Source of the DNA: a virus
Length of the DNA stretch: 64,000 nucleotides
Virus record (IMG/VR): IMGVR_UViG_3300042305_000730
Location: 32,979-96,978 of that record
Strand: one strand, 5' to 3'
The notes beneath the pieces are model-generated. The model was not told the DNA's origin. It worked only from the letters and a program-made list of their open reading frames with translations, and did no database searches. A program made the translations under genes and the position numbers. Below, one piece after another: positions 1,314-63,482 of this stretch (position 1 is its first letter; each line of letters begins with the position of its first letter).

Positions 1314-2016
1314 ACGGGTTCGTGGAGATGGATGCGTCTACTGAAATGGTTCCAGCGGCTAGTCGTTCCCAGTCTCCTGCCGAATCTTGGACAAATAGAT
1401 CAAAGGTATGAACTCCCGCTGGAATACTGTTTTTATCAGAAATATGCATTTCTAGAGTTACTCCTGCTTTTGGAGCCAAGTAACCCCTTCTATTTGCCGT
1501 AAGTGCAACAATTGTATTTTCTGCTGGAATGGATGAATACCAACGTAGATCTAGTACCGTAGTGCCAGCAGTATCCTTTGCTTGCAAGTAGGCATTAGTG
1601 ACAGCCTGTAACGTGCCAGTGCTGTCTTTCCATGTAAAAGTTTTGCGGAAATCCTCATATTGTTTCATACGAAGTTCCATATATTGAGCCTCATCTCTAT
1701 CAGTAACGGTGTCGCCTGTATTGACAGTAATGACCCCTTTAGTTACTTGATAGTAAACATCGTCATAAACTGCTAAGACATCATACTCTAAGTTACCAAT
1801 TGGCAACTCTAGTGTTTCTGCAGCGGTTAGGTAAAGACGAACATCCCCTGATCCGTTAACCGTTGCCGTGATGTTTTTCTTAGACTGGGTAGTTGTTTGT
1901 ATCTGGGCTTTAACAGCACTAGGTACCATTTTCCTTCGCCTAGTTTTGCTCTTAATACAAATTATACGATCAAACGGCAAACCACGGGAGGCAGTGTAAT
2001 TAACGGTTCGGGCCAT
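1306..2016 (-). CDS. virion protein with two tandem BppU-N-like Ig domains
   Basis: Two similar halves (LPIGNLEYDVLA...KGVITV; IPAGVHTFDLFV...AGTISV). Confidence 0.55.
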   Translation of the reverse strand: MARTVNYTASRGLPFDRIICIKSKTRRRKMVPSAVKAQIQTTTQSKKNITATVNGSGDVRLYLTAAETLELPIGNLEYDVLAVYDDVYYQVTKGVITVNTGDTVTDRDEAQYMELRMKQYEDFRKTFTWKDSTGTLQAVTNAYLQAKDTAGTTVLDLRWYSSIPAENTIVALTANRRGYLAPKAGVTLEMHISDKNSIPAGVHTFDLFVQDSAGDWERLAAGTISVDASISTNPYA

Positions 2017-2022
2017 TGCAAC

Positions 2023-2028
2023 AGTTTA
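2023..2028 (-). promoter_or_regulatory. -10 box (TAAACT) of leaderless promoter
   Basis: TAAACT 6 nt before ATG 2016; no SD. Confidence 0.5.
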
Positions 2029-2036
2029 CTACAAGG

Positions 2037-2336
2037 CTACTGACCTTTTTTCTTCCTTGGAAAGTCATGCCCGACCTCTAGCATCTTCTTGCGAACAAAA
2101 CTTTCCATGTTTTTAACGGCACGGTGGTCTGAAGGGGTGCTTGCCATGTGCACAATTCCATCATCCTTGATACGCAGTTGAATGTGCCCGCTGTGTGTTT
2201 TATGGCCCATCACTGGAGTGCTTGCTTGGCTTATACGGGAAAGCACCTCACGAAAAGGCTTATGGGTAGTTAGGGAGCGAATACGATCTTCACTGAGTGC
2301 ATGTTGCTCCCAATTAAGGTTATTCTCACCAGCCAT
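2037..2336 (-). CDS. HicA-like toxin/RNase fold protein
   Basis: HSGHIQLR...IVHMASTPSDHRAVKN resembles actinophage HicA-like proteins; leader MAGENNLNWEQ. Confidence 0.55.
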   Translation of the reverse strand: MAGENNLNWEQHALSEDRIRSLTTHKPFREVLSRISQASTPVMGHKTHSGHIQLRIKDDGIVHMASTPSDHRAVKNMESFVRKKMLEVGHDFPRKKKGQ

Positions 2337-2342
2337 CCTTAA

Positions 2343-2348
2343 AGATTA
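2343..2348 (-). promoter_or_regulatory. -10 box (TAATCT) of leaderless promoter
   Basis: 6 nt before ATG 2336. Confidence 0.45.
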
Positions 2349-2588
2349 CTACATGCGGTGTAACAGGGTACGTTTCATCCGTGCATAGGCTTGCTCATAC
2401 TCTTCTGTCTGCTCATCGGTGAATACACGAACTGCGTAGATACATGGGTCTCCACCCTGATCTAACTCCTCTTCTTCCTTATCGGAAGTGGGCAACCCAT
2501 CGTGGATGTAGCAGGTTGGGTAAAGGCACCATTTATGATCAATCCCAATTGCTAACCATTCATCAAAACCCATAAGTTGTTCTGACAC
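2349..2588 (-). CDS. hypothetical protein
   Basis: SD GGAG; WC..PTCYIHDGLP...GGDPCI motif. Confidence 0.65.
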   Translation of the reverse strand: MSEQLMGFDEWLAIGIDHKWCLYPTCYIHDGLPTSDKEEEELDQGGDPCIYAVRVFTDEQTEEYEQAYARMKRTLLHRM

Positions 2589-2597
2589 ATTTTCTCC

Positions 2598-2756
2598 CTA
2601 TTTTGAAACCGCTAATGTTACTTGATACTCCCCATATTCAGGTTGGTCAATAGCAGTTACCATCGCAGTCTTGAACCCTTGGGTGTGGGCTAGTGTAACA
2701 GCCTGTTCCTTTGCGTCAAGCATCTGGGGCGTAAAAATATGATAAGTGATTATCAT
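2598..2756 (-). CDS. small hypothetical protein (52 aa)
   Basis: Hand-translated MIITYHIFTPQ...VTLAVSK; fills the gap. Confidence 0.5.
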   Translation of the reverse strand: MIITYHIFTPQMLDAKEQAVTLAHTQGFKTAMVTAIDQPEYGEYQVTLAVSK

Positions 2757-2771
2757 GCCATTGTCCTATCA

Positions 2772-2930
2772 TTAATAATCATATTTTGAAAACTTCTTTA
2801 TTTTCTTCTTTTCTTTGCGATCATTAGAGGATTTACGGTTTTCTTTATGAATGTGCAAATCTTTGTAATGTCCTTCTAAGTCATCTTCCTCTTGAAGAAA
2901 CTGCTTACTTAAGTTATTATTTTGATTCAT
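2772..2930 (-). CDS. small hypothetical protein (52 aa) with NLSKQF leader
   Basis: Hand-translated MNQNNNLSKQFLQEEDD...KYDY. Confidence 0.5.
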   Translation of the reverse strand: MNQNNNLSKQFLQEEDDLEGHYKDLHIHKENRKSSNDRKEKKKIKKFSKYDY

Positions 2931-3062
2931 ATTTATTAAGAAGCAAGACTGACAACCTTTGTTCTAGTCTTTTGTTTTCTTGTACAAGGATTTGCCTAAA
3001 GCGATCCTTACCGTACTGGCCTAATCCATGTTGTTTTTTCATAACTTTAAGCATAGTATAAG

Positions 3063-4352
3063 TTAGAACAACCTGATAGACAGGCTGCCATCCTTTCCTC
3101 TTATGACACCTGGTCTACTGTTCTTATTTTCTTCTTTTATTTCTCTTTGCCTTACTGCAACATGATCCATGCGTTTTACGTTTACGCTCTTAGGTAATGG
3201 TGGTGCAGTTGGGGCAAGTTTTTCATAACCAGGAAGGGTGCTTTGCGTCTTTGGTGGCAGTGGTGCAGTGTAATGGGCGTGTACAGCCTGAGAATACTCT
3301 CCAACATCACCAAGACCTAATTGTTTTAAACCTTCACGGACATGGGGATGGTTCTCCACCATTTGACCTAAATACAGATGTCGGGCAGTAGTTGCGTACT
3401 TTGAGTTTTTTGCTGCTAACTTGCCAGTCTTTTCTTCTATATTTTGCCTTAAAGGCGCTAAGTGCTTGTCGGCAAGGGCATCCATATCTGGCAAAGACTC
3501 AATACCAGCCTTTCCATGCATAGCAACATGCAACCTAGTTGCTGCGTACAATGCTTGTTCGTGCCGATCTCTCCACCCTTTAAAGTTTACGCCGTAACCA
3601 CCACCAGTTTTCTTAAGATCTAAAACCCGTTCATCATTTTCAATAGGGTTTAGGTAGCGCTCGTTTACCTCGTCACCACTCTCAAAATCCGTTGTTGTTC
3701 CAAACCTATCCTTATACCCATCTGCAACACCCTCAAACACAGGAGAGGTTACTACCTTACCTTTAGTAGTTGATTTGGCAGTTTCTATTTCTCGGTACCC
3801 AAGCCTTTTACCATTATATTGTGTTGTTCTAGCGCCTTGAGCACTTAGGTGATCTTGGTCTTCTTTATGACCCCATTCGTGGGTAAATGTGTTTCCTAGG
3901 TCGTGATGTGATGCAGGGTCACCATGTACGTTATATGCGTTCATTACTATTTTGTTATCCCCAGCACTGTACTGTCCAGCCCGTTTAGTGGATCGCAGTC
4001 CTTCAACTCTAATTGGGTTTTTTTCCAACATAGTTTTTGAAATGTTAGTGGATGCTATTGCTTGAGGTATATCCTTCTTTACAACCCCATATACAGAATA
4101 TCTATGTAAGTTACCTATATCTGATGAGCCAATACTTGTTGCTTGTCTAATATCTTGTTCTCGTTGCTTAGATCCATACAGTGGATCATTACGAGACTGT
4201 GTTGCGGTATCTGGGTGGAAAAGTAAACCTTGTGGGTTTTTGGAGCGTGGCGTTCCACCAGACCCTCCATAAGAGTGCGTATCTTCGTAAGGGGTTGTTT
4301 TGTCATCACCTTCAAAGTAAGTATTATTAAACTGTTCTCCAAGGTTAGGCAT
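3063..4352 (-). CDS. zincin-like metallopeptidase domain protein
   Basis: TFTHEWGH (HExxH) with downstream FEGVADGY; leader MPNLGEQF. Confidence 0.6.
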   Translation of the reverse strand: MPNLGEQFNNTYFEGDDKTTPYEDTHSYGGSGGTPRSKNPQGLLFHPDTATQSRNDPLYGSKQREQDIRQATSIGSSDIGNLHRYSVYGVVKKDIPQAIASTNISKTMLEKNPIRVEGLRSTKRAGQYSAGDNKIVMNAYNVHGDPASHHDLGNTFTHEWGHKEDQDHLSAQGARTTQYNGKRLGYREIETAKSTTKGKVVTSPVFEGVADGYKDRFGTTTDFESGDEVNERYLNPIENDERVLDLKKTGGGYGVNFKGWRDRHEQALYAATRLHVAMHGKAGIESLPDMDALADKHLAPLRQNIEEKTGKLAAKNSKYATTARHLYLGQMVENHPHVREGLKQLGLGDVGEYSQAVHAHYTAPLPPKTQSTLPGYEKLAPTAPPLPKSVNVKRMDHVAVRQREIKEENKNSRPGVIRGKDGSLSIRLF

Positions 4353-4358
4353 AGGTTA

Positions 4359-4364
4359 ATTATA
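4359..4364 (-). promoter_or_regulatory. -10 box (TATAAT) of leaderless promoter
   Basis: Consensus TATAAT 6 nt before ATG 4352. Confidence 0.6.
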
Positions 4365-4369
4365 AACCA

Positions 4370-4543
4370 TTATCCACCGTTAGAGTAAAAACCCCTACCT
4401 ACAAGGTTTACTGCTGGAGAAAAGTAAACAGGGCGCAATCTTTCATTACAGTCAGGACACAAGATTGTTCTTTGCTCATCGTAGATACTACGGGTTTCTT
4501 CGTGCCGATGGTCGTTTGAACACTTGTAGGCGTATGTGGGCAT
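4370..4543 (-). CDS. FmdB-family zinc-ribbon protein (57 aa)
   Basis: Hand-translated MPTYAYKCSNDH...CPDC...VYFSPAVNLVGRGFYSNGG, matching the FmdB pattern MPxYxYxC...CPxC...GxGFY. Confidence 0.75.
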   Translation of the reverse strand: MPTYAYKCSNDHRHEETRSIYDEQRTILCPDCNERLRPVYFSPAVNLVGRGFYSNGG

Positions 4544-4545
4544 AG

Positions 4546-5121
4546 TTATAAGCCTAACTCTTCTTTTGCCTCAGCGTGATACCCGCCCCCATCTCGTTCT
4601 TCTGCCCCAGGGTCAGTATTGAACTGTTGAGTACTTATATACTGAACATGCCCTGATGTTACTAACTGGTGTGGAATTACATAAGAAGTAGAGCCTGGGT
4701 CTTCCCAACGATTTCTATACTTGTTAATACTGGTTTTGCTATTTTCCTTTACCCGCATGTTTTCTTGATAATCCTTGGGCGGTTTAGGTGCGTTGTCGCT
4801 GTATCCCTCTTCGTGTGGGTCTTCAAAAGTCATCATTGACGGGCGTTTATTAATTTGGTAAGTGTGCATATATGTTGTGAAATCAGGACCGTTATTATCT
4901 TCTTGTATTCCCTCTTCAGTCATTTGACTGTAATACTGTTTTTCATGGGCATGCTGCATCATTAATGATCGGTCTAAAGCGGCATTTATTGTCCCAGCGT
5001 GAAACCCACTCTTTTTATAACCTTTTCTGAAAGGCTCAGCATGACTGGCAAGCACATGTGGGGGTGTTGGGTTATTACTAGCGTGATACACCGTAATGTT
5101 AGTTGGATCTTTCCTAGACAT
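4546..5121 (-). CDS. putative ADP-ribosyltransferase-fold protein
   Basis: VYHAS...GFHAGTINAALDR...MHTYQI...YRNRWED..STSYVI resembles H-type ART cores. Confidence 0.45.
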   Translation of the reverse strand: MSRKDPTNITVYHASNNPTPPHVLASHAEPFRKGYKKSGFHAGTINAALDRSLMMQHAHEKQYYSQMTEEGIQEDNNGPDFTTYMHTYQINKRPSMMTFEDPHEEGYSDNAPKPPKDYQENMRVKENSKTSINKYRNRWEDPGSTSYVIPHQLVTSGHVQYISTQQFNTDPGAEERDGGGYHAEAKEELGL

Positions 5122-5642
5122 TATTTAAACCCCTTTAAGTTCTTTCTTGCTCTGTGTTTTCCTTTGCTACCAAGTCCAGGTGCAGGTGCGGCAACCTTTC
5201 TGCTCCCTTGATCAAAAAATACTTCACCCTCACCCTCATGACCTATTCCGATGATGTGTTCCCGAGGAACTAGGTAGATGTGGAGTTTGTTGTCTTGACC
5301 GTAGTGGTGGATGCCAAACTCTTCTTTATTTGGATTATTGCCCGTCCACTCAGGATATATAGAACCACTTCGTATTTTGGCACTTTTAGGAACACCACCT
5401 CTGTGGGTTACTTGAACCTGATCAGGAAGGTTAACTTCATTCTTTAGATGCTGTTGCAGGTTTTGGTAGGGTTCACCACTCCTGTCTTTTGCTTCGTGTA
5501 AGTACTCTTTAGGCCACTTAGTAGTGCCATGTGACCATTGCTCTATATCACTCTCATAATCAGTACCTTCAAAGTATGGGGCATGTCCCTTTTCCCAACT
5601 TTCAGAAAACTGATCCCAATTAATACCTTCGTGTGCAGCCAT
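5121..5642 (-). CDS. putative ADP-ribosyltransferase (R-S-E-like)
   Basis: THRGG...SGSI...LHIYLVPREHII...EGEV; leader MAAHEGINWDQF. Confidence 0.45.
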   Translation of the reverse strand: MAAHEGINWDQFSESWEKGHAPYFEGTDYESDIEQWSHGTTKWPKEYLHEAKDRSGEPYQNLQQHLKNEVNLPDQVQVTHRGGVPKSAKIRSGSIYPEWTGNNPNKEEFGIHHYGQDNKLHIYLVPREHIIGIGHEGEGEVFFDQGSRKVAAPAPGLGSKGKHRARKNLKGFK

Positions 5643-6304
5643 TACATGCCTGGGAGTCGTGGTTGATCGTAATATTCTTTAGGTGCTGGCTGCTTTGCAG
5701 GGCGGAGCATCTGTTTAAGGAACTGCTTGCCTGCCATAACTTCTTTTTGAGGAATATAACCTTCATAAGCACCAGCCATGTCCAATATTTGTTTTGGATT
5801 ACGCATAATCACGGGTGCTATATCTTCTGGTTCAGGTTCTTCAGTCCGTTCAGCATCTGTCAACATGTCAGGGTTAGACCCGTGTGGGACTGCTATACCT
5901 TTATTGACAGCAGTTTTAGACAGTGCGCTGCTAAATTTAGTTAAAGACGAGCCTGTTACCATCTGTGCATGTGGGTGGTCTTGTTGGGCTAGTGCCATGA
6001 CCGTCATCATGTGGGGGCGAACACGCTTGTCTGCTCGCATACTGTCAACCGTAAGGGTTTCAGGAGTTCCGTAAAACAACTCGGTTGGGTACTTATGTGA
6101 TTCAGATAGTCGGGTTGGGTAACCATCTTCACCAAAATTAGGGTATTCCTGTGCTTTTTGATAAGTAAACTTTGCTTCACCTACTGGATGTATAGGCTTT
6201 TCATTGTCAAGGCTTGAATAACTTCCTTCAGTACCAACAACACCATATATCCTGCGGCGCTTTGCATAACTGTCGTCAGGTACGTTTTTATAGTACTGAG
6301 CCAT
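5642..6304 (-). CDS. hypothetical protein, possible degenerate GNAT fold
   Basis: TLTVDSMRADKRVR...SLTKFSSAL weakly GNAT-like; TAATG-coupled to its downstream neighbour. Confidence 0.4.
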   Translation of the reverse strand: MAQYYKNVPDDSYAKRRRIYGVVGTEGSYSSLDNEKPIHPVGEAKFTYQKAQEYPNFGEDGYPTRLSESHKYPTELFYGTPETLTVDSMRADKRVRPHMMTVMALAQQDHPHAQMVTGSSLTKFSSALSKTAVNKGIAVPHGSNPDMLTDAERTEEPEPEDIAPVIMRNPKQILDMAGAYEGYIPQKEVMAGKQFLKQMLRPAKQPAPKEYYDQPRLPGM

Positions 6305-6483
6305 TACTTATCCTTCTTCTTTGCTTTACGCTTCTCTAGAAGGTATTGTGGGTCACGCTTGGTAAACCCTGCGCTTTGATGGAGTTCGTCAATAGTAATA
6401 GGCTCACCGTCTATCCAGGTATGCCCTTTAGGGTTGGTGTTAGATTTCCAACGGAATTGGGGGCTTTCGTGCCTAGGGTCCAT
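6304..6483 (-). CDS. small hypothetical protein (MDPRHESPQF...)
   Basis: ATG 6483 overlaps the upstream stop (TAATG); preferred over the track start at 6525. Confidence 0.55.
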   Translation of the reverse strand: MDPRHESPQFRWKSNTNPKGHTWIDGEPITIDELHQSAGFTKRDPQYLLEKRKAKKKDK

Positions 6484-6851
6484 TAATCTATTTTCCTTTC
6501 TGGGTGCTTCATTCCAGGTTTCCAACCCATACCCTCGGCATACCCAATTACTTTAAAGCCCTTTTTGCTGTCAAAACTTTGCATAACGTTACCATCAGGC
6601 TTAATAAGGTCGGGGAATGCATCGGCATCATCATGTTCCCAAGGTTCAATTTCTGACCAATCATGGGGAACGACCTTATGTAGATGCTCACCAAACTCAC
6701 TGGCATAAGTAATGTCTTCTGTAGCGTGTACATCGTCATCCCCGTCTGCTTGGGGTACTACAGACCCACCTACAGGTATCTTATTTGGTGAACCGTGATA
6801 CAAGTAAGGGCCAAATAGTTCTTCGTTGATGTGTGTATGCTTACGAGTCAT
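6483..6851 (-). CDS. Arr-like ADP-ribosyltransferase domain protein
   Basis: LYHGS...VGGSVVP...VHATEDITYA...LHKVVP. Confidence 0.6.
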   Translation of the reverse strand: MTRKHTHINEELFGPYLYHGSPNKIPVGGSVVPQADGDDDVHATEDITYASEFGEHLHKVVPHDWSEIEPWEHDDADAFPDLIKPDGNVMQSFDSKKGFKVIGYAEGMGWKPGMKHPERKID

Positions 6852-6854
6852 TAG

Positions 6855-7265
6855 TTAATCCTCATACTTAATAGCATGTCCTTGGTTTTTGTGAAAACTT
6901 TCCCAACGAGACACTGTATCTTCAGGCATTACCCCACCATCTGCATTAGATAGATTAGGAATACTTCCCGCCTTATCTAACATAAAGTCCATAGCAGCAC
7001 CATGTGCTTCCCTTCGTGAACCAAAGTCTCGTGTTTGTGTACCACGCCCTACTAAACTAATTTCTTTTCTAGCAGGATTGTGCCACTCCCAACCATACTT
7101 ACCAGTTTTTACTTGGGTTAAAGAATCTTGCACACGCTTGCCTTCTCCACGTTTATACATTTCTGTCATTGTGCTTTCAGACATGCCAGGAGCGCCATAC
7201 GTAGCAACCTGCTCGTAGATATGTGGTCGCCATTCATTAAATTGATACTCATTAAGTGGTTTCAT
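6855..7265 (-). CDS. hypothetical protein with LNEYQF leader
   Basis: ORF with its own leaderless promoter. Confidence 0.65.
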   Translation of the reverse strand: MKPLNEYQFNEWRPHIYEQVATYGAPGMSESTMTEMYKRGEGKRVQDSLTQVKTGKYGWEWHNPARKEISLVGRGTQTRDFGSRREAHGAAMDFMLDKAGSIPNLSNADGGVMPEDTVSRWESFHKNQGHAIKYED

Positions 7266-7267
7266 GA

Positions 7268-7285
7268 ATCAAGTATAGATGGTTA
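7268..7285 (-). promoter_or_regulatory. leaderless promoter TAACCATCTATACTTGAT (identical to 9899-9916 on +)
   Basis: TATACT at 7272-7277, 6 nt before ATG 7265; exact 18-bp inverted copy at 9899. Confidence 0.7.
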
Positions 7286-7894
7286 TAAAGAAGTGTCTGG
7301 AGAAATAACTGTGTCAAATGGGTCAGACACATCTAACCCCTCTGGATACCAGATTTTAGTGTTTGTAATGTATTTAGGGCGTTCGTCTGTCAATTTAACA
7401 AAAGACTCGTCAAACACCAGCATACGGTTACCAGGCCAAGCGCCCACACGACCACAGTCTAAACGCACAAAGTTAAAGTGTTTATGCTGATCAGGGGTTG
7501 AGGAATACATATCGTCATAGGGCGCAGCAGTAAACATATACCTACCTGTTTCCCAGACCCCTTCTTTCATATACACCTTCACGGCTAGTTCAGACAATGC
7601 ACTGTATTCATGGGTAGTGAAATCTTGCCCGTAACAACTCCATACCTGTAGGTGGTCTAAAGGGTGGTGGTGTTTAGCAGGCGTATAGAAAGTTAAAGCG
7701 TGAAGGGGGACATGTTGGACTAAAGCGCCGTTTTCTAGGAGTAGGGATACTCCCCATGCCCTATTAGGGATTGCAGACAGCCCATAGACTAAGCAGGCTG
7801 TATATTCCCCAAACCCTTTTTCAAAGTTATACAGAAACTCATTCTGCACATAACAGTAAAATGGTTTAGGAATGTCTGTAATGTGCTTTGCCAT
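7283..7894 (-). CDS. hypothetical phage protein
   Basis: 203 aa ORF; TATACT at 7902-7907, 7 nt before ATG. Confidence 0.7.
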   Translation of the reverse strand: MAKHITDIPKPFYCYVQNEFLYNFEKGFGEYTACLVYGLSAIPNRAWGVSLLLENGALVQHVPLHALTFYTPAKHHHPLDHLQVWSCYGQDFTTHEYSALSELAVKVYMKEGVWETGRYMFTAAPYDDMYSSTPDQHKHFNFVRLDCGRVGAWPGNRMLVFDESFVKLTDERPKYITNTKIWYPEGLDVSDPFDTVISPDTSL

Positions 7895-7950
7895 TTACAT
7901 AAGTATATACGGACACATCAACGGCGAACTTTTTCGTTTATACTAGACAA
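7895..7950. promoter_or_regulatory. divergent pair of leaderless promoters
   Basis: TATACT on - (7902-7907) and on + (7939-7944, 6 nt before GTG 7951). Confidence 0.65.
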
Positions 7951-8460
7951 GTGCCAGCACGAGAGTACGTCAACAAGGGACAGTTCCCAGAGTCTAAATA
8001 TCGTAATAAACTACTGTATCGTGCTGTTACCTTGCATGACCCTGAAATTACTGAGAGATTACACGCAGGAACTATTTCCGCCCCAGAAGTACTCAAACAT
8101 CTAGGTTCCTCTACAGGAGTAGGAATGCATTGGGCTGGGGGCGGTCCAGACATGCTATACAGTAGTCGTATGCATGGTGCGGTAAACGACACCCCTGCCA
8201 CTGTAGTTATGACTATTCACCATAACGACCAAATGACCGACAACACTTGGCATGGTGAATTTAAAGGTCAAGGAGCCACCCTTGGTGAATACCATCCAAC
8301 AGTACCAACACAGGCGATAATGCACAGCATGGCGGTAGACACTGGTGACCCTACCAAACCAATGCAGTGGGATAGTGACCCCCATTGGAGACCTCTTCCT
8401 GGCTCTGCTGGTCTAAAAATTGAAACATTTTACGATAGAAAACTAGATCGTAATGGGTAA
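7951..8460 (+). CDS. hypothetical protein, possible ART fold
   Basis: LLYRAV...GVGMHW; leader MPAREYVNKGQF. Confidence 0.45.
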   Translation: MPAREYVNKGQFPESKYRNKLLYRAVTLHDPEITERLHAGTISAPEVLKHLGSSTGVGMHWAGGGPDMLYSSRMHGAVNDTPATVVMTIHHNDQMTDNTWHGEFKGQGATLGEYHPTVPTQAIMHSMAVDTGDPTKPMQWDSDPHWRPLPGSAGLKIETFYDRKLDRNG

Positions 8461-8749
8461 GCGACTCACTGCACAGCAGATCATGGATAACTACCAACCT
8501 GGGGATATTCTTAGGCATCAAGAACCTGAAGAGTTCTGGGGATACAAATTAGAAGAGGCCAAAACTAACAAAATATCTAAAGATAAGACTTTGTATCAAG
8601 ATATTGAAGAACGTGGGCAGCAAAAACCAATCACCCTTGGCTATAAAGGGCTTGGTGCTCCTTCTATCTTGGATGGTCACCACCGTTTAGCAGCATTACA
8701 CCACATGAACCCTAACCAGTTTGTTAAGTACCGAAGGGTAACCCCGTAA
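8453..8749 (+). CDS. ParB/Sulfiredoxin-like domain protein
   Basis: GQQKPITL...ILDGHHRLAAL. Confidence 0.75.
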   Translation: MGKRLTAQQIMDNYQPGDILRHQEPEEFWGYKLEEAKTNKISKDKTLYQDIEERGQQKPITLGYKGLGAPSILDGHHRLAALHHMNPNQFVKYRRVTP

Positions 8750-9096
8750 TGCCAGCACATGAAAGCCTGAGTAACTACCAATTTCGCTACCGCCCTGCCA
8801 AAATGAAGGCATTCCAGCATGAAGTCGCTGCTGTGGATAAAAAAACAGGTAAAAACGTAGGTTACCTACTCTGGAGGAACAGTGGCTCAGTAGATGAAGT
8901 GTATGTAAGTGAGCCAAAGCGTCGTATGGGCATGGCTACCGAAATGTGGAATCATGCAAATCGGGTGGCAGATGCTGCAAAAGGCAATGTTCCGCACCCA
9001 GAACACTCTTCATCCCGTACCGACGCAGGCGATGCTTGGGCGAAATCTGTAGGTGGATACATTCCACCGAACACCATGGACAAGGAAAAACGATAA
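8749..9096 (+). CDS. GNAT acetyltransferase
   Basis: VYVSEPKRRMGMATEM (motif A); leader MPAHESLSNYQF. Confidence 0.75.
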   Translation: MPAHESLSNYQFRYRPAKMKAFQHEVAAVDKKTGKNVGYLLWRNSGSVDEVYVSEPKRRMGMATEMWNHANRVADAAKGNVPHPEHSSSRTDAGDAWAKSVGGYIPPNTMDKEKR

Positions 9097-9542
9097 TGGC
9101 TGCACACGAACACTTAAACCCTGAGCAAGTTAGGGCTATAGCAGAAGCACATGGTGATAAGTATTTTGCCAACTACAAAGACCCAGTAAAACGTGATCGT
9201 GGTTGTTGCTATGACTATTCTGAGCATTTCGGTGAGTTTGGTAATGTAAAAGGAACAAAGATTAAACCATATGAAACTGAGCAAGATGGCGAAGCACATG
9301 CAATTAACGTTGTCCCAACCAGTCAAGGCCCTCACGCAGTAGATTTTACATACCTACAATTTGATAAAACAGCAAAAATGCCACATTTTGAACCATTACA
9401 TGAATATACTGCACGTTTTAAGAACAGATTCCCAAAAATGATTGAGTATCCACTACAAACTCCTTCAGGATCTGTAGAACACTTCTACCCAGACATGAAT
9501 TGGGAATATAAAGGCCCAACTAACGAGCACGGCAATTGGTAA
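9096..9542 (+). CDS. papain/transglutaminase-like (Cys-His-Asp) protein
   Basis: Start at TAATG overlap 9096 (MAAHEHLNPEQ); GCCYDYS...HAINVV...AVDFTYLQFD. Confidence 0.55.
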   Translation: MAAHEHLNPEQVRAIAEAHGDKYFANYKDPVKRDRGCCYDYSEHFGEFGNVKGTKIKPYETEQDGEAHAINVVPTSQGPHAVDFTYLQFDKTAKMPHFEPLHEYTARFKNRFPKMIEYPLQTPSGSVEHFYPDMNWEYKGPTNEHGNW

Positions 9543-9595
9543 TTGCCCTTTAGACGGCAAATTTTTCACCACCCAAATAGCCCTATACTTGATAA

Positions 9596-9901
9596 ATGCC
9601 TGAGTACACCTTTCAGTACGGCCCGTCTGACGAAGATGTGCCACATGAAGTCATTGCGAAAGAGGATAACAAAGTTGTAGGTCGTTTATCGTGGCACCCA
9701 CAGATTGAAAATGTCTTTGTTGAAGAAAACCACCGTAGGAAAGGTATCGCTACAGGAATGTACCGTCATGCCCAGCACATTTCTACCCAATTTGACGATG
9801 TAGCACCGCCCCAACATAATCCAATTCGCACTGTAGAAGGCGACGCTTGGGCTAAATCTACGGGTGACACACTTCCTCCACGTATTACCCCACGTAAGTA
9901 A
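9596..9901 (+). CDS. GNAT acetyltransferase
   Basis: VFVEENHRRKGIATGM; TATACT-N6-ATG promoter at 9584. Confidence 0.78.
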   Translation: MPEYTFQYGPSDEDVPHEVIAKEDNKVVGRLSWHPQIENVFVEENHRRKGIATGMYRHAQHISTQFDDVAPPQHNPIRTVEGDAWAKSTGDTLPPRITPRK

Positions 9902-9916
9902 CCATCTATACTTGAT
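9899..9916 (+). promoter_or_regulatory. leaderless promoter TAACCATCTATACTTGAT
   Basis: TATACT 9907-9912, 6 nt before ATG 9919; CTATACTTGATAAATG also at 9583. Confidence 0.7.
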
Positions 9917-9918
9917 AA

Positions 9919-10224
9919 ATGGCAGCCTCAGACCATCTTCACCCTACGTTATTCCATGGGTCTAGACAACAATTTAAGCCAGGGGACACTATCCAGCCCG
10001 TTACTGAGGCAACCTACAAAGAACGAGGCTATTCCACCCCAATGCCTGCCTTTGCCACTGAGAATCTGAATCGGGCGAGGGCCTTTGGGCATGTCTATGA
10101 GGTAGAGCCTCATGACTGGAGAGATGTAGAATGGGAAGAAGACGAGGGCGAGGGCGCTGAAGAAGGCGACTACGCAGCACTAAGTCATACCAAAGGCTAC
10201 AAAGTCATACGTAAGGTGAAATAA
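9919..10224 (+). CDS. Arr-like ADP-ribosyltransferase domain protein
   Basis: LFHGS...FKPGDTIQP...AFATENL..A...VYEVEP; paralog of 6483-6851. Confidence 0.65.
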   Translation: MAASDHLHPTLFHGSRQQFKPGDTIQPVTEATYKERGYSTPMPAFATENLNRARAFGHVYEVEPHDWRDVEWEEDEGEGAEEGDYAALSHTKGYKVIRKVK

Positions 10225-10568
10225 TGCCTAAACCAATCAAATATCAGTACGATGAGGGTGGACCTGATGTTGATCACCGTATTAATGCAAGGCAAGGACA
10301 CTCTACCGTAGGGTTTTTGGCGTGGCAGGGTAATACTACAGATAAATACAACCATGTTCACGCCGTATATGTGCGACCAGATATGCAGCGAAAGGGTATT
10401 GCAACCAAGATGTGGAAGCATGCTCATTACATTTCTGAACAATTTGAGTCAGTAGCACCACCAAGACACTCTCCAACCCGTACTAATGATGGTGACGCTT
10501 GGGCGAGGGCCGTTGGGGGAGACATACCACCAAAAAAAGGAACACTGCCCATGACTTGGGAGTTGTAG
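10224..10568 (+). CDS. GNAT acetyltransferase
   Basis: VYVRPDMQRKGIATKM. Confidence 0.78.
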   Translation: MPKPIKYQYDEGGPDVDHRINARQGHSTVGFLAWQGNTTDKYNHVHAVYVRPDMQRKGIATKMWKHAHYISEQFESVAPPRHSPTRTNDGDAWARAVGGDIPPKKGTLPMTWEL

Positions 10569-10677
10569 AGCCAAATTTAGGTCTACGTTAGGGCAAAATG
10601 GTGTGTGTGCAATTTTTTGGGATGGGTCTATCTGGTGGGTTGATGCTTAGTGGGGGGTGGGCCCTCCTCCCCACGCA

Positions 10678-10773
10678 ACCCTCAACCTCTACTTAAGGGT
10701 GGGGGGTCTACCCTCAACCCTCAACCCTCACTAGAGAGTTCACCCATCAACCCTCTACCTATACTGTAGGGTT
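10678..10773. repeat. three imperfect palindromes (A)ACCCTC(A/T)A-N7-T(T/A/G)xAG(G/A)GT(T)
   Basis: 10678-10700, 10716-10740, 10749-10773; arms of 8-9 bp with 7-bp spacers. Confidence 0.7.
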
Positions 10774-11322
10774 AGTGGATGGTTGAGACTTTGGGCGAAT
10801 CCCTTGTGTCATATGGGCACAACCCTCAATGGCTCAATAGGAGCCTCTAGGAGCGTCTGATAGGCGGATACGCCTACTCATAGGGAATCGTCCTTTGCTC
10901 CTCTCCTATGGCATCCTGACGCTTCTCAGAGGGATCTAGGGATGAAGGGCGATAAGCATCACTCCACGTGGCATTGGCGGGCTAGACGTGGGTCTATGCC
11001 GGGGGGTCAGCACGACATTGGGATGCTAGGGGAGCATTTGCACTGGTTCCGGCACTCCAGTGATTGATATCTCACTGCATATGCATGCACTCACCAATGA
11101 CCGATTCATTCATGCATTCCTTCCCTTCATCCCTCCTCCTGATAGATGAATTGAGTGGTGATGTGCTGGGCGAAATACTCCACGTGGCACTCCACAATGG
11201 AATGGTTCATATCGAGATATGCCATCGTTCGGATGGAGGCTCTCCTCATCCATGTGCTGCTCTTCTGTCCCCTCTCCGATGATCCTGTGACGTGCTTTTC
11301 AGTGATGTAGGTGAACTTGGGC

Positions 11323-11365
11323 AAAAAAAAGATCCCCATGACAACTTGTGCCATGGGGATCTTTT
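11323..11365. terminator. bidirectional intrinsic terminator
   Basis: A8-GATCCCCATG...CATGGGGATC-TTTT, just downstream of the helicase gene. Confidence 0.8.
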
Positions 11366-11376
11366 CGGAACGTTGG

Positions 11377-12858
11377 TTACGAGTAAGACCGAAGAATTGC
11401 CATCGCCATTGACTCATTGTCCTCAGAGATCAGATCGTTGCTCGTGCCCTCCAGCACGCCGATCATGACCTTATTCTTCGCCTCAATGAGCATGAGCATC
11501 TTCTCGTCCATCGTTGTCATGCCCTCAATGCCAGCAACCATGATGTGCGAAACAGTCTCACGGGTCTGCCCGAAACGATTGATGCGATCCTCCACTTGAA
11601 GCAGATCAGCCGATGTCCACGACAGTGAGCAGGACACATGGTGACGTGCGGAGTGGAGCGTGATGCCCGTACCGGCACTCTGCACGTTGCCAATCAGGAC
11701 ACGTGCATGCCCACTCTGGAATGCATCCACTGCTTCCATCTTTGCCTTGTCATTCATTCCACCTACGATGCGAACAGCGTTGTGGGATTCAGCGAAGTGG
11801 GCGAAATATGCATCGGCTTCATCCTTGAAGTTGGTGCTCATGAACACTTGCTCACCATCGTCCAGCAGATTCTCCACGTACTTGATCACAGGCTTCACTG
11901 AGCCCATCGCACAGATGTGGCGGAGTTCATTAATGCGAACTAATGCCTCAGCGAGCATCGCCTTCTGAGCACGTACTTCGCCTTTGGTATTGCGAATCCA
12001 TTCAATGAGATTCTCTTCGCATGCGATGTAGTTCGCAACACGCTTCTCATCCATCTCAATCGTGACTTGTGTACGCCCCTTATTCGGGAGTGTGAGCACT
12101 TCACTTCGCACACGGCGGATCATGAATGAGCCCGTGAGCAGATCATGCAGTTCTTTGACGTGAGCCGCACCACGACTTCCGAATGCATCAATCTTCGGTG
12201 CATAGCGGTTGATGAAACCATTGATGCCACCCTTGAAGGTTGCTCCACGATCCAGCATCTCTACGACTGGGAGTAATTCCATCGGATGAGCCACGAGCGG
12301 TGTTCCACTCATGGCAACACGGATTCCGGAGGTTGAGACTGTCTTGGCAATTTCAACGCACGCTTGACTACGTTTCGCACGCTTGCCACCCTTGATGCGC
12401 TGACACTCGTCCACGATGATTCCAGCAACGTTGTGCTTCAGTAAGTTCTTCCATCCAGCCAGTGATGCATCACCAATCAGCAACACATCTGCTTTGGGCA
12501 ATTCAGTGATTTTGTGCTTGACAGGATTTGTTCCAGTGATCGTATGGACACTCACTGTTGGTGAGAACTTTGCGAACTCACGAGCCCACTGCAAACGCAT
12601 GGACGGTGGTACGACAATCAACACTGGAGTCATGCCTGCGTTTACAGATGCTGTTGCGATGGCAATCGCAGTTGCTGTCTTACCAACGCCCTGCTCATCA
12701 GCGATCAACACGGTGCGATTGTCTAATGCAAATTGACAACCAGTCACTTGGTGATCTAACAGTGGTTGCGCGAGTGATGGCATTGACAATTTGGTTTTAG
12801 TGATTGGTGCATTCTTCATGAATTGCTGAAGATCTTGAAGTGCTTTTAACTGTGACAT
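11377..12858 (-). CDS. SNF2-family (SMARCAL1/HARP-like) helicase
   Basis: ADEQGVGKT, IVDECQ, MSGTP, QVEDRINRFGQ; start re-called at ATG 12858 after GAAAGG. Confidence 0.85.
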   Translation of the reverse strand: MSQLKALQDLQQFMKNAPITKTKLSMPSLAQPLLDHQVTGCQFALDNRTVLIADEQGVGKTATAIAIATASVNAGMTPVLIVVPPSMRLQWAREFAKFSPTVSVHTITGTNPVKHKITELPKADVLLIGDASLAGWKNLLKHNVAGIIVDECQRIKGGKRAKRSQACVEIAKTVSTSGIRVAMSGTPLVAHPMELLPVVEMLDRGATFKGGINGFINRYAPKIDAFGSRGAAHVKELHDLLTGSFMIRRVRSEVLTLPNKGRTQVTIEMDEKRVANYIACEENLIEWIRNTKGEVRAQKAMLAEALVRINELRHICAMGSVKPVIKYVENLLDDGEQVFMSTNFKDEADAYFAHFAESHNAVRIVGGMNDKAKMEAVDAFQSGHARVLIGNVQSAGTGITLHSARHHVSCSLSWTSADLLQVEDRINRFGQTRETVSHIMVAGIEGMTTMDEKMLMLIEAKNKVMIGVLEGTSNDLISEDNESMAMAILRSYS

Positions 12859-22180: not shown

Positions 22181-22591
22181 TTAGGCTCTCAGCAACCTCT
22201 GTAGCATAATTTTTAGATCTCCCAAGTCCTTACTGCTCTTGGGAATTACGCTGATGTCAATATTTTTATTTATATTGTTGTGTGCATCAACACATTCGGA
22301 GCAATTACAACCTTGTCTGTATCGTGTAACAGTTCCATGTGCTGCAAAGTTTGTAACCTTATTTACCTTCTGTAACGGCGTTCTTTCTTGTGGTGTTAAA
22401 CCACCCCACATACCGTAAGTTTCATTTATTCCTATTTCTTTGCATTCTTTCCAAACTGGACAGACATTACAGACATTTTTAGCAATCGCGTAATACAGTT
22501 CAGGGTTGGGAGCATCAAATGGAGGAAACCATATATCTCCCGCACGATTTTTACATGCGGATTCGGACATCCAATCGGGAGGGGTTTTCAT
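22181..22591 (-). CDS. whiB: WhiB-family transcription factor with C-terminal HGT..Y..GCxCxxC finger
   Basis: W...AC...WFP...CNVCPVWKEC...GMWGGLTPQER. Confidence 0.9.
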   Translation of the reverse strand: MKTPPDWMSESACKNRAGDIWFPPFDAPNPELYYAIAKNVCNVCPVWKECKEIGINETYGMWGGLTPQERTPLQKVNKVTNFAAHGTVTRYRQGCNCSECVDAHNNINKNIDISVIPKSSKDLGDLKIMLQRLLRA

Positions 22592-27640: not shown

Positions 27641-27961
27641 TTATACCCAAAGACTTTGCATGGAATATCGCCCTGAACCACTGAACTTGTCATCATTCAT
27701 TTGTGCTCGTTGGAACATAACGGGAGCACCAGAAACCCATGAACGGTAGGTCGGGGCATAACGGTCTACAGATAGCACGTCCATTACCTTTAGTTCCTGT
27801 TTAAGGAATCCTCTACGTTCTGGCATAAGTTGTTGAGGAACAATTGGGCGAGTAGCACGAATAGTGTCTAAATCAGAAATAGCGCTTTGCAGCGCAATAT
27901 CAACCAGCATCTCTTCACGAGATTGCCAAGGTCTACGAGTTCTGAAGTTGTCTACAGGCAT
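27641..27961 (-). CDS. hypothetical protein
   Basis: TAATG-coupled. Confidence 0.65.
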   Translation of the reverse strand: MPVDNFRTRRPWQSREEMLVDIALQSAISDLDTIRATRPIVPQQLMPERRGFLKQELKVMDVLSVDRYAPTYRSWVSGAPVMFQRAQMNDDKFSGSGRYSMQSLWV

Positions 27962-28224
27962 TAATAACCGCTGTCGTCATACTCGTGCCCATCATATGAA
28001 CCAATATCATCGTTAGGCTCATGCATGTTTTCATCTGCTTCCGAATAATTCTCTGCAATACCAGCGGCATCAATTCCACCCCACATTGCCTGTTCTTTGG
28101 CAATGGCTTCTTTGACACGTGGGTCATCACCAAAACCAACACCGATTTCAGCGTACCTACTACCTAATGCATCTTTAGTAACTTTGCGGTTTGAATGATG
28201 TCGTGTATCTTCGCCTTTAGGCAT
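27961..28224 (-). CDS. MPKG-leader small protein
   Basis: MPKGEDTRHHSNRKV. Confidence 0.75.
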   Translation of the reverse strand: MPKGEDTRHHSNRKVTKDALGSRYAEIGVGFGDDPRVKEAIAKEQAMWGGIDAAGIAENYSEADENMHEPNDDIGSYDGHEYDDSGY

Positions 28225-28424
28225 TAGTAACTCTTTTCTGTTTCGCTAAATCCTGAATCTGGCTCTAAACCATCATTGCCACGGGCATCTTCCATCGCCT
28301 CATGTGCATCACGGTCATCTTTACCGTAATTAGGACTAGTCATTGCAGCCATGTTTGCAATATCAAACGAAAATCGGCTTACTCCACGATTTGGGTGATG
28401 GCGAGTGTCTTTTCCTTTAGGCAT
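28224..28424 (-). CDS. MPKG-leader small protein
   Basis: MPKGKDTRHHPNRGV. Confidence 0.75.
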   Translation of the reverse strand: MPKGKDTRHHPNRGVSRFSFDIANMAAMTSPNYGKDDRDAHEAMEDARGNDGLEPDSGFSETEKSY

Positions 28425-28600
28425 TATTCATCATCTCCGTACCATGTAGGTTGTGCCATTGGGTCATATCCCTTACTGCTTGGGAAAATCTTGTCAGCAA
28501 GTTTGTTCAAAGTAGAAGTTTCTGCCTTCTTACGCTTCCTAAAAGCATCTAAATTAACGATGCGAGCATCGTGATTACTAGTGTCCTTACCTTTAGGCAT
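28424..28600 (-). CDS. MPKG-leader small protein (58 aa, not in track)
   Basis: Hand-translated MPKGKDTSNHDARIVNLDAF...WYGDDE; TAATG overlaps at both ends. Confidence 0.75.
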   Translation of the reverse strand: MPKGKDTSNHDARIVNLDAFRKRKKAETSTLNKLADKIFPSSKGYDPMAQPTWYGDDE

Positions 28601-28869
28601 TACTTGTCTCCTGACGGAATTTCCTCATTAAGTTTATCAGCATGGGCCTTTGCTTGCCATTCATGATCATATGGAACAATCCCTGCAGGGTTTACATGGG
28701 GCATTCTCCTCAACTTATCCCCCACATTCGGGGTGTACCCAATAAACCATTGCATGCCTGATGAACGAGATTGGGTAAAATCGTTTTGTTGAGAGTTACT
28801 CCCACGATAATGGTGATAACGACCTACCTGACGTTTTGCGTTATGGCGTTCGTCCTTACCACCCGACAT
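28600..28869 (-). CDS. MPKG-like-leader small protein
   Basis: MSGGKDERHNAKRQV. Confidence 0.7.
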   Translation of the reverse strand: MSGGKDERHNAKRQVGRYHHYRGSNSQQNDFTQSRSSGMQWFIGYTPNVGDKLRRMPHVNPAGIVPYDHEWQAKAHADKLNEEIPSGDK

Positions 28870-62951: not shown

Positions 62952-63482
62952 TCAGGTTGCCATTGGTAGTTTTTGAGGCCAAGGGTAATCTTGAGTAGAC
63001 ATTGCTTCAGGACCTGGATCGTTTACCATTTCCTCATCAATGTATATTTCTAAGCCTTCAACGACTACGAGGACATCATCTTTTGCCCGACCACGAACTC
63101 GGTACATAGATACCCCATAATAGCGAGCATCATAAAAAAACATATCGTTTAGGTGTCTTTGGTATTCAAAGGGTTGGCTAACCCCCGCTGTGCGAAGATC
63201 CTCAATAGAAAATACAGCATTTAAAACTTGGACTGGCTGACGACCTTCAGGGATTGCCCTTTTAGTATCTTCAGTTTCAGTAATCATCAAGGTAGGTAGG
63301 ACAATCCCATCCTTATACTTCTTACCGCCCGTAGACATATTTCCCTCGTCATACACATCATCTAAGGTGCTACCCCCTTGACCAAAAGGGATAAACTCAA
63401 ACCACGTAACAAACTCCCCTGAGTTACGTTGGTATTGATGGTACTTATTCCTAATTAAATTAAGTTCACGCCTAGTATCCAT
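62952..63482 (-). CDS. head-tail joining (neck) protein
   Basis: DDVYDEG motif; position in operon. Confidence 0.55.
   Translation of the reverse strand: MDTRRELNLIRNKYHQYQRNSGEFVTWFEFIPFGQGGSTLDDVYDEGNMSTGGKKYKDGIVLPTLMITETEDTKRAIPEGRQPVQVLNAVFSIEDLRTAGVSQPFEYQRHLNDMFFYDARYYGVSMYRVRGRAKDDVLVVVEGLEIYIDEEMVNDPGPEAMSTQDYPWPQKLPMAT

Follow-up and report, generated by a model that had tools for sequence, protein, structure and literature searches.

A portable N-terminal tag on unrelated small proteins of an uncultured lake phage: a possible capsid-loading address

The internal proteins of T-even phages are unrelated to one another, their only common feature being an N-terminal packaging leader, and they are encoded at a hypervariable locus (PMC12373910, PMC3012670). 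For the DarB protein of phage P1, the first 30 residues are reported to suffice for loading a reporter (PMC9024508), and polyvalent proteins, predicted or known to be encapsidated, have been proposed to be delivered together with the DNA at invasion (PMC5512222; Iyer et al. 2017). Here we analyzed a 64,000-nucleotide stretch of DNA (the window), comprising bases 32979-96978 of the 96,978-bp virus record IMGVR_UViG_3300042305_000730, whose accessory block (window positions 2037-10224) contains small genes with different bodies that begin with a similar peptide of about 12 residues, which we call the tag. Polymorphic toxins, such as the MuF-fused toxins of phages, join a constant N-terminal module to recombining variable C-terminal toxin or enzyme parts; there the constant part is a folded domain, whereas in this locus it is a 12-residue peptide, and no MuF-like annotation turned up among the head-module proteins scanned, in which no search was aimed at MuF. 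Encapsulins, which are non-viral, use a short terminal peptide, usually C-terminal, to dock diverse cargo inside an HK97-fold shell; their cargo peptides are not known to have any sequence likeness to the tag.

The tag is N-terminal and portable, selection acts on it as a peptide, it varies consistently from one lineage to another, and it lies at cassette junctions; it is probably a portable address label. All eleven N-termini quoted in an initial annotation of the window were present at the starts of their genes, with differing strength. Six genes begin M-[AP]-A-x-[ED]-x-[LIV]-[NSH]-x-x-[QL]-[FHV], and in these the motif is strong and exactly N-terminal, running from residue 2: 2336 (-), 5642 (-), 7951 (+, GTG start), 8749 (+), 9096 (+) and 9919 (+), where each gene is named by its start. 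Those at 6851 (-), with the motif two residues later, and 7265 (-), with MKPLNEYQF, are real but shifted or shortened, and those at 2930 (-), 4352 (-) and 6483 (-) are weak members. In the gene at 2930, which has orthologues in two relatives, the spacing from L-S to Q-F is one residue short; the orthologue of 4352 retains MPNLGEQF; the 6483 family shows clearer tags in relatives (MPAQNNLNGQQF); and the orthologues of 2336 begin with MSTEDNLNWEQH or MGTEENLNWDQH, nearer to the sister-lineage version described below. A short form, M-[AS]-LNP[DE]QF, recurs among relatives, and the short forms found (MALNPEQF, MSLNPEQF, MKALNQYQF and MLNPNQF) imply that the core is [LIV]-[NS]-x-x-Q-F and that the AAHE prefix is optional. 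This core lies inside the first dozen residues, at a distance of 1-6 from the N-terminus, the general form of the tag being M-[AS/P]-A-[HQE]-[ED]-x-[LIV]-[NS]-x-x-[QL]-[FLHW].

When residues 2-12 of the 154 predicted proteins of the 97-kb genome were compared all against all, the six strong members formed a clique with unrelated bodies, and 14 pairs scored 20 or more versus 2-3 in the nulls. The strict core [LIVM][NS]xxQ[FLH] occurred 11 times in 29,187 proteome positions; seven of these occurrences were in the first ten residues, where about 0.004 are expected per protein, and five of the seven belong to this block. A matrix built from the six strong window tags and scanned over 28,349 predicted-proteome positions ranked the training tags highest, followed by an internal stretch of the ParB-like protein 8453-8749 (16.6 bits) and by the tag of 6851, which at 11.8 bits was the best N-terminal match beyond the training set. 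The replication, head and tail proteins all scored 9.6 bits or less, in agreement with the earlier remark that the tag is not carried by replication or tail genes. A profile scan for N-terminal enrichment, suggested in the initial annotation, was clearly positive: in a six-frame scan of 24 related contigs (439,512 positions, of which candidate N-termini made up only 0.6%), the six-tag matrix gave 56 matches of at least 20 bits at candidate gene starts versus 3 elsewhere, about one match per contig being built in by the way in which the contigs were retrieved; one contig, L014, is ~98-99% identical to the window. The three matches elsewhere were one orphan tag and two true N-termini failing the start rule, and twenty column-permuted matrices gave no match of 20 bits or more in the same contigs. 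An in-frame stop often lies only 0-3 codons upstream of the ATG, and in those cases the tags are therefore truly N-terminal. An exhaustive profile search with the tag alignment (all 30 columns kept) was uninformative, since nothing came back beyond the query family and a repeat protein matched spuriously.

When IMG/VR and JGI metagenomes were scanned by protein-guided and DNA-pattern searches, many related contigs came to light, and about 100 distinct small tagged proteins were found in more than 50 viral contigs, those with the long form of the tag having 57-213 residues (median 132). The 48 distinct A-type tagged proteins from the IMG/VR loci fell into 17 unrelated body families (BLASTP, E below 1e-4); further tagged proteins came from metagenome loci, including one 88-kb contig with eight tagged genes. 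The recognisable bodies are GNAT, Arr-like ADP-ribosyltransferase (ART), ParB-like and RimI-like, and most have no family. That the tagged bodies are unrelated, as first noted, holds by BLASTP, but not within the GNAT trio (8749, 9596 and 10224) or the Arr-like pair (6851 and 9919; E 1.5e-10), whose members are related to each other.

The names originally given to the bodies fared unevenly. The three GNAT genes matched the profiles Acetyltransf_1, _7 and _10 (lowest E 3.5e-6); 9596 and 10224 passed the curated cut-off, and 8749 fell just short of it. For the Arr-like label, the best member of the 9919 family matched Pfam Arr-ms below the cut-off (E 9e-4), and an AlphaFold2 model of 9919, with a predicted local distance difference test (pLDDT) score of 88, had Arr structures as its top three Foldseek matches (probability 0.98-1.0, E 7e-3; including 9iaf and 2hw2, both at probability 1.0), showing an ART fold with the H-G-[ST] motif on the first strand. 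The zincin label of 3063-4352 (Pfam Tox-MPTase2, E 0.03, below cut-off) and the ART-like label of 5121-5642 are given by motif; the C-terminal half of the latter has HRG...SGS...GEGEV motifs resembling those of R-S-E ADP-ribosyltransferases, its family is restricted to this phage lineage (15 clusters), and the AlphaFold2 model of this family was unusable (pLDDT 47). On the other hand, the HicA-like (2037-2336) and papain-like (9096-9542) labels were not upheld, as neither protein had a Pfam match at E up to 0.1 and only PHROG 2089 was found.

A sister lineage, represented by the 94.7-kb genome G001 (major capsid protein 56% and scaffold 36% identical to those of this phage), uses its own version of the tag: at least six of its genes begin M-S-A-[QE]-[DN]-N-L-S-x-x-[LQ]-[FW], and the copies differ synonymously. 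A pattern scan for this version found 35 loci, all true N-terminal, with 50 unique N-termini and many ART-like bodies. No shared N-terminal motif was seen in the high-GC relatives G003 and BRock, whose head genes are equally similar, and the strict pattern, searched in one genome per species for 185,579 bacterial and archaeal species, gave only chance matches in Flavobacterium Fmt. Because the copies differ synonymously, a single lineage-specific reader is favoured over recent copying, and the uniformity within a lineage, the difference between lineages and the free third codon positions are what a common lineage-specific reader would be expected to produce. Of the 154 proteins, 15 are shared with the tag-bearing G001 and absent from the tag-less relatives, among them a zinc-ribbon protein, an HslV-like peptidase and a 176-residue protein (62952-63482). 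In a 92-kb relative, G005 (IMGVR_UViG_3300042566_000478), both contig ends break inside the accessory block; this hypervariable block evidently breaks metagenome assemblies, and the tag counts per contig are therefore underestimates. Sister-lineage loci L179-L212 bear more shared leaders on GNAT-like bodies, for example MKQTPREPDHDPxEPRNL and MSAQDEHGGDLP, and further address families may exist.

In 46 unique tag DNAs, positions 1 and 2 of the codons for residues 2-5, 7, 8, 11 and 12 hold about 1-2 bits each, and codon position 3 only 0.2-0.5 bits. The statement that the tag is not conserved at the DNA level was right in the relevant sense: the third positions vary freely, and therefore the peptide itself is under selection, as read from the codon pattern, which also rules out a purely nucleic-acid explanation. 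Upstream of the tags the sequences are of two classes, TAATG stop-start overlaps after Lys-rich tails and TATACT-N6-ATG, with no Shine-Dalgarno sequence seen in these upstream regions. The arrangement TATACT/TATAAT-N5-8-ATG/GTG is found at starts 4352, 7265, 7894, 7951, 9596 and 9919, and six of the nine sites of this kind in the genome lie in the block. As such starts have no room for a ribosome-binding site, they suggest leaderless mRNAs, as do the back-to-back start codons of 7895-7950 for the genes at 7894 (-) and 7951 (+). At the other end of the tagged proteins (window and loci L001-L058), the last 12 residues contain on average 3.2 lysines plus arginines versus 1.4 in the other proteins, and 44% of tagged proteins versus 12-13% of other proteins have at least four; these basic tails may reflect translational coupling, through purine-rich codons before TAATG, or contact with DNA.

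The tag moves independently of the bodies. The GNAT at 8749 has the leader, and the alignment with its paralogues at 9596 and 10224 starts at residue 7 of this protein; the ART-like family of 4546-5121 is untagged here (MSRK...VYHAS) and tagged in L033:3136 (MPAHEHLNKILFHAS), and ParB-like proteins are likewise untagged here and tagged in relatives. In the AlphaFold2 model of 9919, residues 1-6 have a pLDDT below 50 and the first strand comprises residues 11-15 (LFHGS); in this model the leader is a flexible N-terminal extension flush against the first strand, its last residues running into the fold. The untagged GNATs 9596-9901 and 10224-10568 contain internal stretches resembling the tag, and an H-x-x-x-I-S-x-Q-F-like stretch at that position was found in 0 of 24 tagged versus 4 of 22 untagged GNATs, a small sample; the resemblance may be due to chance.

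To look at cassette exchange, we set the window against a contig 98-99% identical to it and against contigs from four lake runs. The genes 4546-5121, 6855-7265 and 9096-9542 are each either intact or missing altogether, with joints 4545>5144 and 6854>7269 each in three lake runs and a further joint at 9093>9540. The GNAT cassette is replaced between 8751/8762, that is, the ATG or the first five tag codons, and 9096, where the following tagged gene has its ATG. At this site the common allele has MAAHEYINPDQQTR-stop and then, in frame, an untagged ART-like gene (MGKIVYHGT), and a third allele diverges after MPAHE. An orphan 14-codon tag exists, and tag-like stretches are found at the C-termini of two upstream genes, which look like scars of cassette exchange; the stretch LAALHHMNPNQFVKYRRVTP at the C-terminal end of 8453-8749 (~8690-8746), the sole strong internal match of the genome, is most likely a recombination scar. 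Since the cassette breakpoints are at tags, the tag therefore also marks recombination joints. Together, the 17 body families, the occurrence of one body with and without the tag, the selection on the peptide and the cassette exchange give good support to the modular tag-plus-payload arrangement initially proposed, whereas packaging into the virion is proposed by analogy.

Among the products of the genome are a tail sheath, baseplate, tape measure and large terminase, together with a portal, a scaffold and an HK97-type major capsid protein whose genes lie at genome positions 1613-5273, and its nearest cultured relative is the Streptomyces myovirus BRock (major capsid protein identity 60%). It contains a WhiB gene (22181-22591; Pfam E 1e-13), used as an actinophage marker in the literature (PMC10202952, PMC6802176), has a G+C content of ~44%, and the block is present in at least 18 independent 'lake water metagenome' runs, with no RNA run among those listed. 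On the WhiB gene, the G+C content and the lake-water runs taken together, the source would be an uncultured phage of low-GC freshwater Actinobacteria. The block had no match in 50,697 phage records by megablast and tblastn.

We tentatively favour the idea that the tag is a capsid-loading and ejection address comparable to the T4 internal-protein leader or the DarB N-terminus, to which, arguing by analogy, we give somewhat less than an even chance. One common receptor, most likely a component of the assembling head, would read the flexible N-terminal tag on unrelated small enzymes, and the tagged ADP-ribosyltransferases, acetyltransferases, ParB-like proteins and peptidases would be packed into the capsid and enter the cell together with the DNA. 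Such a set could be viewed as an 'unbundled' polyvalent protein, each domain travelling with its own ticket. The architecture matches the only known systems of the kind, the T-even internal proteins and DarB. Like the capsid-targeting sequence of Ip1, Ip2 and Ip3, the leader is the sole similarity between the proteins, here over 17 body families by BLASTP, and in both cases the locus is hypervariable, with gene-by-gene gains and losses and tag-bounded replacement in this phage. Both are myoviruses, and the T-even payloads act on the host or its defences; those payloads are inhibitors, however, whereas here they are mostly enzymes (ART, GNAT, ParB-like), with ~8-11 tagged genes per genome instead of the 3 of T4 and with two lineage-specific tag versions. 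By eye, the T4 leader looks unlike the tag motif. The DarB signal, too, is an N-terminal stretch of fewer than 30 residues that is transferable and brings an anti-restriction enzyme into a myovirus head, and it is described for DarB alone in a study that also compared the N-termini of the Dar proteins (PMC9024508), unlike the one motif on many proteins seen here. The payloads (zincin peptidase, ART, RimI-like GNAT and ParB-like, with an SNF2 helicase adjoining) resemble the domain list of polyvalent proteins (PMC5512222); there 2-15 domains are fused, and here there are separate open reading frames of 52-429 residues, each with its own leader. Profiles for GNAT, ParB_N, Arr-ms and SNF2 were detected, and the PolyVal-specific Pfam models were unmatched at E up to 0.1. 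The tagged proteins are also small, with basic tails, and the block lies directly upstream of and co-oriented with structural genes, namely tail fibres here and the large terminase, portal and major capsid protein genes in G001.

Several observations weigh against capsid loading. The system is known here from the sequence of an uncultured phage, and BRock, its closest cultured relative, does not have the tag. Head-module scans of the genome did not detect a canonical or T4 gp21-like prohead protease, nor was a cleavage motif common to the tag and the head proteins found; packaging and cleavage are proposed by likeness to T4. Half of the block runs opposite to the rest of the genome, and the sigma-70-like TATACT-N6-ATG starts at several genes could mean early expression. 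Furthermore, G003 and BRock, with similar portal, major capsid and scaffold proteins, manage without tags; this implies that the head needs no tags and that any receptor must be lineage-specific. A receptor, a location in the head and the ejection of cargo are what we infer from the tag and its distribution. The fuller picture, in which two lake-phage lineages use a peptide 'postal code' such that enzymes gaining the leader are loaded and fired into the next cell, the virion becoming a multi-enzyme injector of ~10 cargo types and the tag serving both as address and as recombination joint, is possible but doubtful.

A short, disordered and position-tolerant peptide, with its core 1-6 residues from the N-terminus, would also suit a docking motif for another common partner, either a host hub such as RNA polymerase or the ribosome, or a phage chaperone or neutraliser of toxic enzymes. 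Lineage-specific versions could then track different hosts, the sigma-70-like leaderless starts are compatible with early expression, and the tag-like stretch of the untagged GNAT paralogues, absent from the 24 tagged ones of that small sample, fits as well. A possible accomplice is the small zinc-ribbon protein 4370-4543, which both lineages have inside the block. None of the neighbours of the tagged genes is better conserved (10 of 20 tag-bearing contigs, 67-93% identity), and it is one of the 15 proteins shared with G001 and absent from the tag-less BRock and G003. Nevertheless, there is no obvious reason for ADP-ribosylating, acetylating, proteolytic and ParB-like enzymes all to need the same host site, no partner was identified, and the motif is not known to resemble any binding motif; docking elsewhere seems rather unlikely. 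We consider it distinctly unlikely that the tag is a degron or processing site through which an HslV/proteasome-like peptidase, the zincin or a putative peptidase destroys the enzymes on a timer or activates them. N-terminal degrons are short and unstructured, like the tag, and an HslV-like peptidase with an N-terminal Thr (PHROG 1040, Pfam Proteasome) is encoded by the tag-bearing G000, G005 and G001, adjoining the tagged block in G001, and is absent from the tag-less BRock and G003. However, this co-occurrence amounts to two lineages per side, which also differ in host GC class as a confounder, HslV requires an unfoldase and none was identified, and the freshwater actinophage DSL-LC01 has an HslV homologue (49.5% identity) with no tag in the first 50 kb scanned. 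In the present genome the peptidase gene lies outside the window, at genome positions 5609-6244 (-) (L007:5609-6244), between the terminase and portal genes, and its product starts with MTTIVGV; in DSL-LC01 the homologue adjoins WhiB. Its candidacy as the prohead protease was weakened, as DSL-LC01 has both HslV and annotated capsid maturation proteases.

The cassette data could also be taken to mean that the leader has no function as a peptide, being a recombination joint for cassettes or a set of first codons that aids translation starts lacking a Shine-Dalgarno sequence: breakpoints lie inside the tag or at the ATG, there are an orphan 14-codon tag and tag scars at the C-termini of upstream genes, and the starts are TAATG overlaps or TATACT-N6-ATG. 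This is very improbable, since nearly random third codon positions with amino acids conserved to residue 12 are a signature of peptide selection, contiguous DNA identity between tags is at most ~15 bases, and the motif is kept across lineages whose scaffolds are only 36% identical. We give hardly any credence to the tags being leftover inter-domain linkers or cleavage sites of a broken-up ancestral polyvalent polyprotein. The domain repertoire does resemble that of polyvalent proteins, including the zincin type proposed to process them (PMC5512222), and DSL-LC01 has a 3,289-residue protein right after the portal gene. But fusions containing the tag internally were not found, the sole internal copies being the terminal scars; tagged bodies gave one weak match only to the giant DSL-LC01 protein (E 0.002), and purifying selection would not maintain a relic in two lineages. 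The giant open reading frame itself (L214:2800-12669; OQ999401.1 52800-62669) is placed like a packaged polyvalent protein.

Other roles for the peptide were tried and rejected. An amino-terminal Cu- and Ni-binding (ATCUN) type metal site, X-X-His after Met removal, does not fit because good tags have R, S, Q or N in place of His4 and the position of the core varies. As to a sliding-clamp motif (QLxLF), only the ParB-like family has QL-x-MF, which belongs to the body, and a helix N-cap or 'hydrophobic staple' is at odds with the Arr-like model and the GNAT paralogue alignment, where the residues after the tag begin a strand and not a helix.

Full-text literature searches found the T4 and P1 signals and no description of this motif. 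If the tag does serve for loading, it would join the leaders of the T4 internal proteins and DarB as the third known signal for capsid targeting, much the richest by the cargo families found here, and the first in phages of Actinobacteria. The ART genes of freshwater actinophages, discussed as toxins against eukaryotic grazers (PMC6802176), would be recast as injected host-takeover or anti-defence enzymes, and with the motif a single line of sequence pattern would be enough to spot injected effectors in metagenomes, while proteins could be put into particles by means of a portable tag. Whatever reads it, the tag is a clean natural short linear motif, with ~100 proteins and two lineage versions, which makes the search for its receptor tractable.

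Table 1. Features of the tagged block and its immediate surroundings, in window coordinates (aa, amino acids).
Feature	Position	Strand	Remarks
99-aa protein	2037..2336	-	tag MAGENNLNWEQH (codons 2301-2336); phrog_2089, function unknown
52-aa protein	2772..2930	-	weak tag MNQNNNLSKQF
429-aa zincin-like protein	3063..4352	-	HExxH motif; short tag MPNLGEQF; TATAAT-N6-ATG start
57-aa zinc-ribbon protein (FmdB-type), untagged	4370..4543	-	Pfam Zn_ribbon_8, E 4.7e-9
191-aa untagged ART-like cassette (VYHAS)	4546..5121	-	whole gene present or absent among strains
173-aa protein	5121..5642	-	canonical tag MAAHEGINWDQF (5607-5642)
59-aa protein	6304..6483	-	degenerate tag MDPRHESPQF; family in 12/20 contigs
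122-aa Arr-like ADP-ribosyltransferase	6483..6851	-	tag shifted two residues (MTRKHTHINEELF...YHGS)
136-aa protein	6855..7265	-	short tag MKPLNEYQF; TATACT-N6-ATG start; cassette present or absent as whole gene
56-bp divergent region	7895..7950	.	back-to-back TATACT-N6-start codons
169-aa protein, unknown fold	7951..8460	+	tag (V/M)PAREYVNKGQF (7951-7986); no Pfam or PHROG match
98-aa ParB-like protein, start untagged	8453..8749	+	ParB_N / TIGR00180 matches in family members
115-aa GNAT	8749..9096	+	tag MPAHESLSNYQF (8749-8784); cassette replaced in other strains
148-aa protein, unknown fold	9096..9542	+	tag MAAHEHLNPEQV (9096-9131); lost as whole gene in minor lake variants
101-aa GNAT paralogue without leader	9596..9901	+	aligns from residue 7 of tagged paralogue; internal HAQHISTQF
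101-aa Arr-like ADP-ribosyltransferase	9919..10224	+	tag MAASDHLHPTLF (9919-9954); orthologues begin MAAHEHLNPTLFHGS
114-aa GNAT paralogue without leader	10224..10568	+	internal HAHYISEQF

Three other regions of the window deserve mention. Within the block, 7283-7894 (-) encodes a 203-residue homologue of a cyanophage 'PurM-like/ferredoxin' protein (phrog_3704), which relatives conserve at 91-96% identity, compared with 50-85% for its neighbouring genes; as a widespread cyanophage protein, this conserved neighbour was rejected as a tag receptor. Between the converging block and the SNF2 gene lie 800 bp of higher G+C content (51%; 10568-11377), whose sole convincing open reading frame encodes 72 residues (11064-11282); scans with Rfam and for tRNAs, over 10400-11500 and over the whole window, gave no match. 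Finally, a second leader family is found at 27961-28869 (-), where four tandem small genes (58-89 residues) with TAATG overlaps begin MPKG[KE]DT[RS]xH.. or MSGGKDERH.. and differ in sequence past about residue 15; these may be just fast-diverging tandem paralogues.

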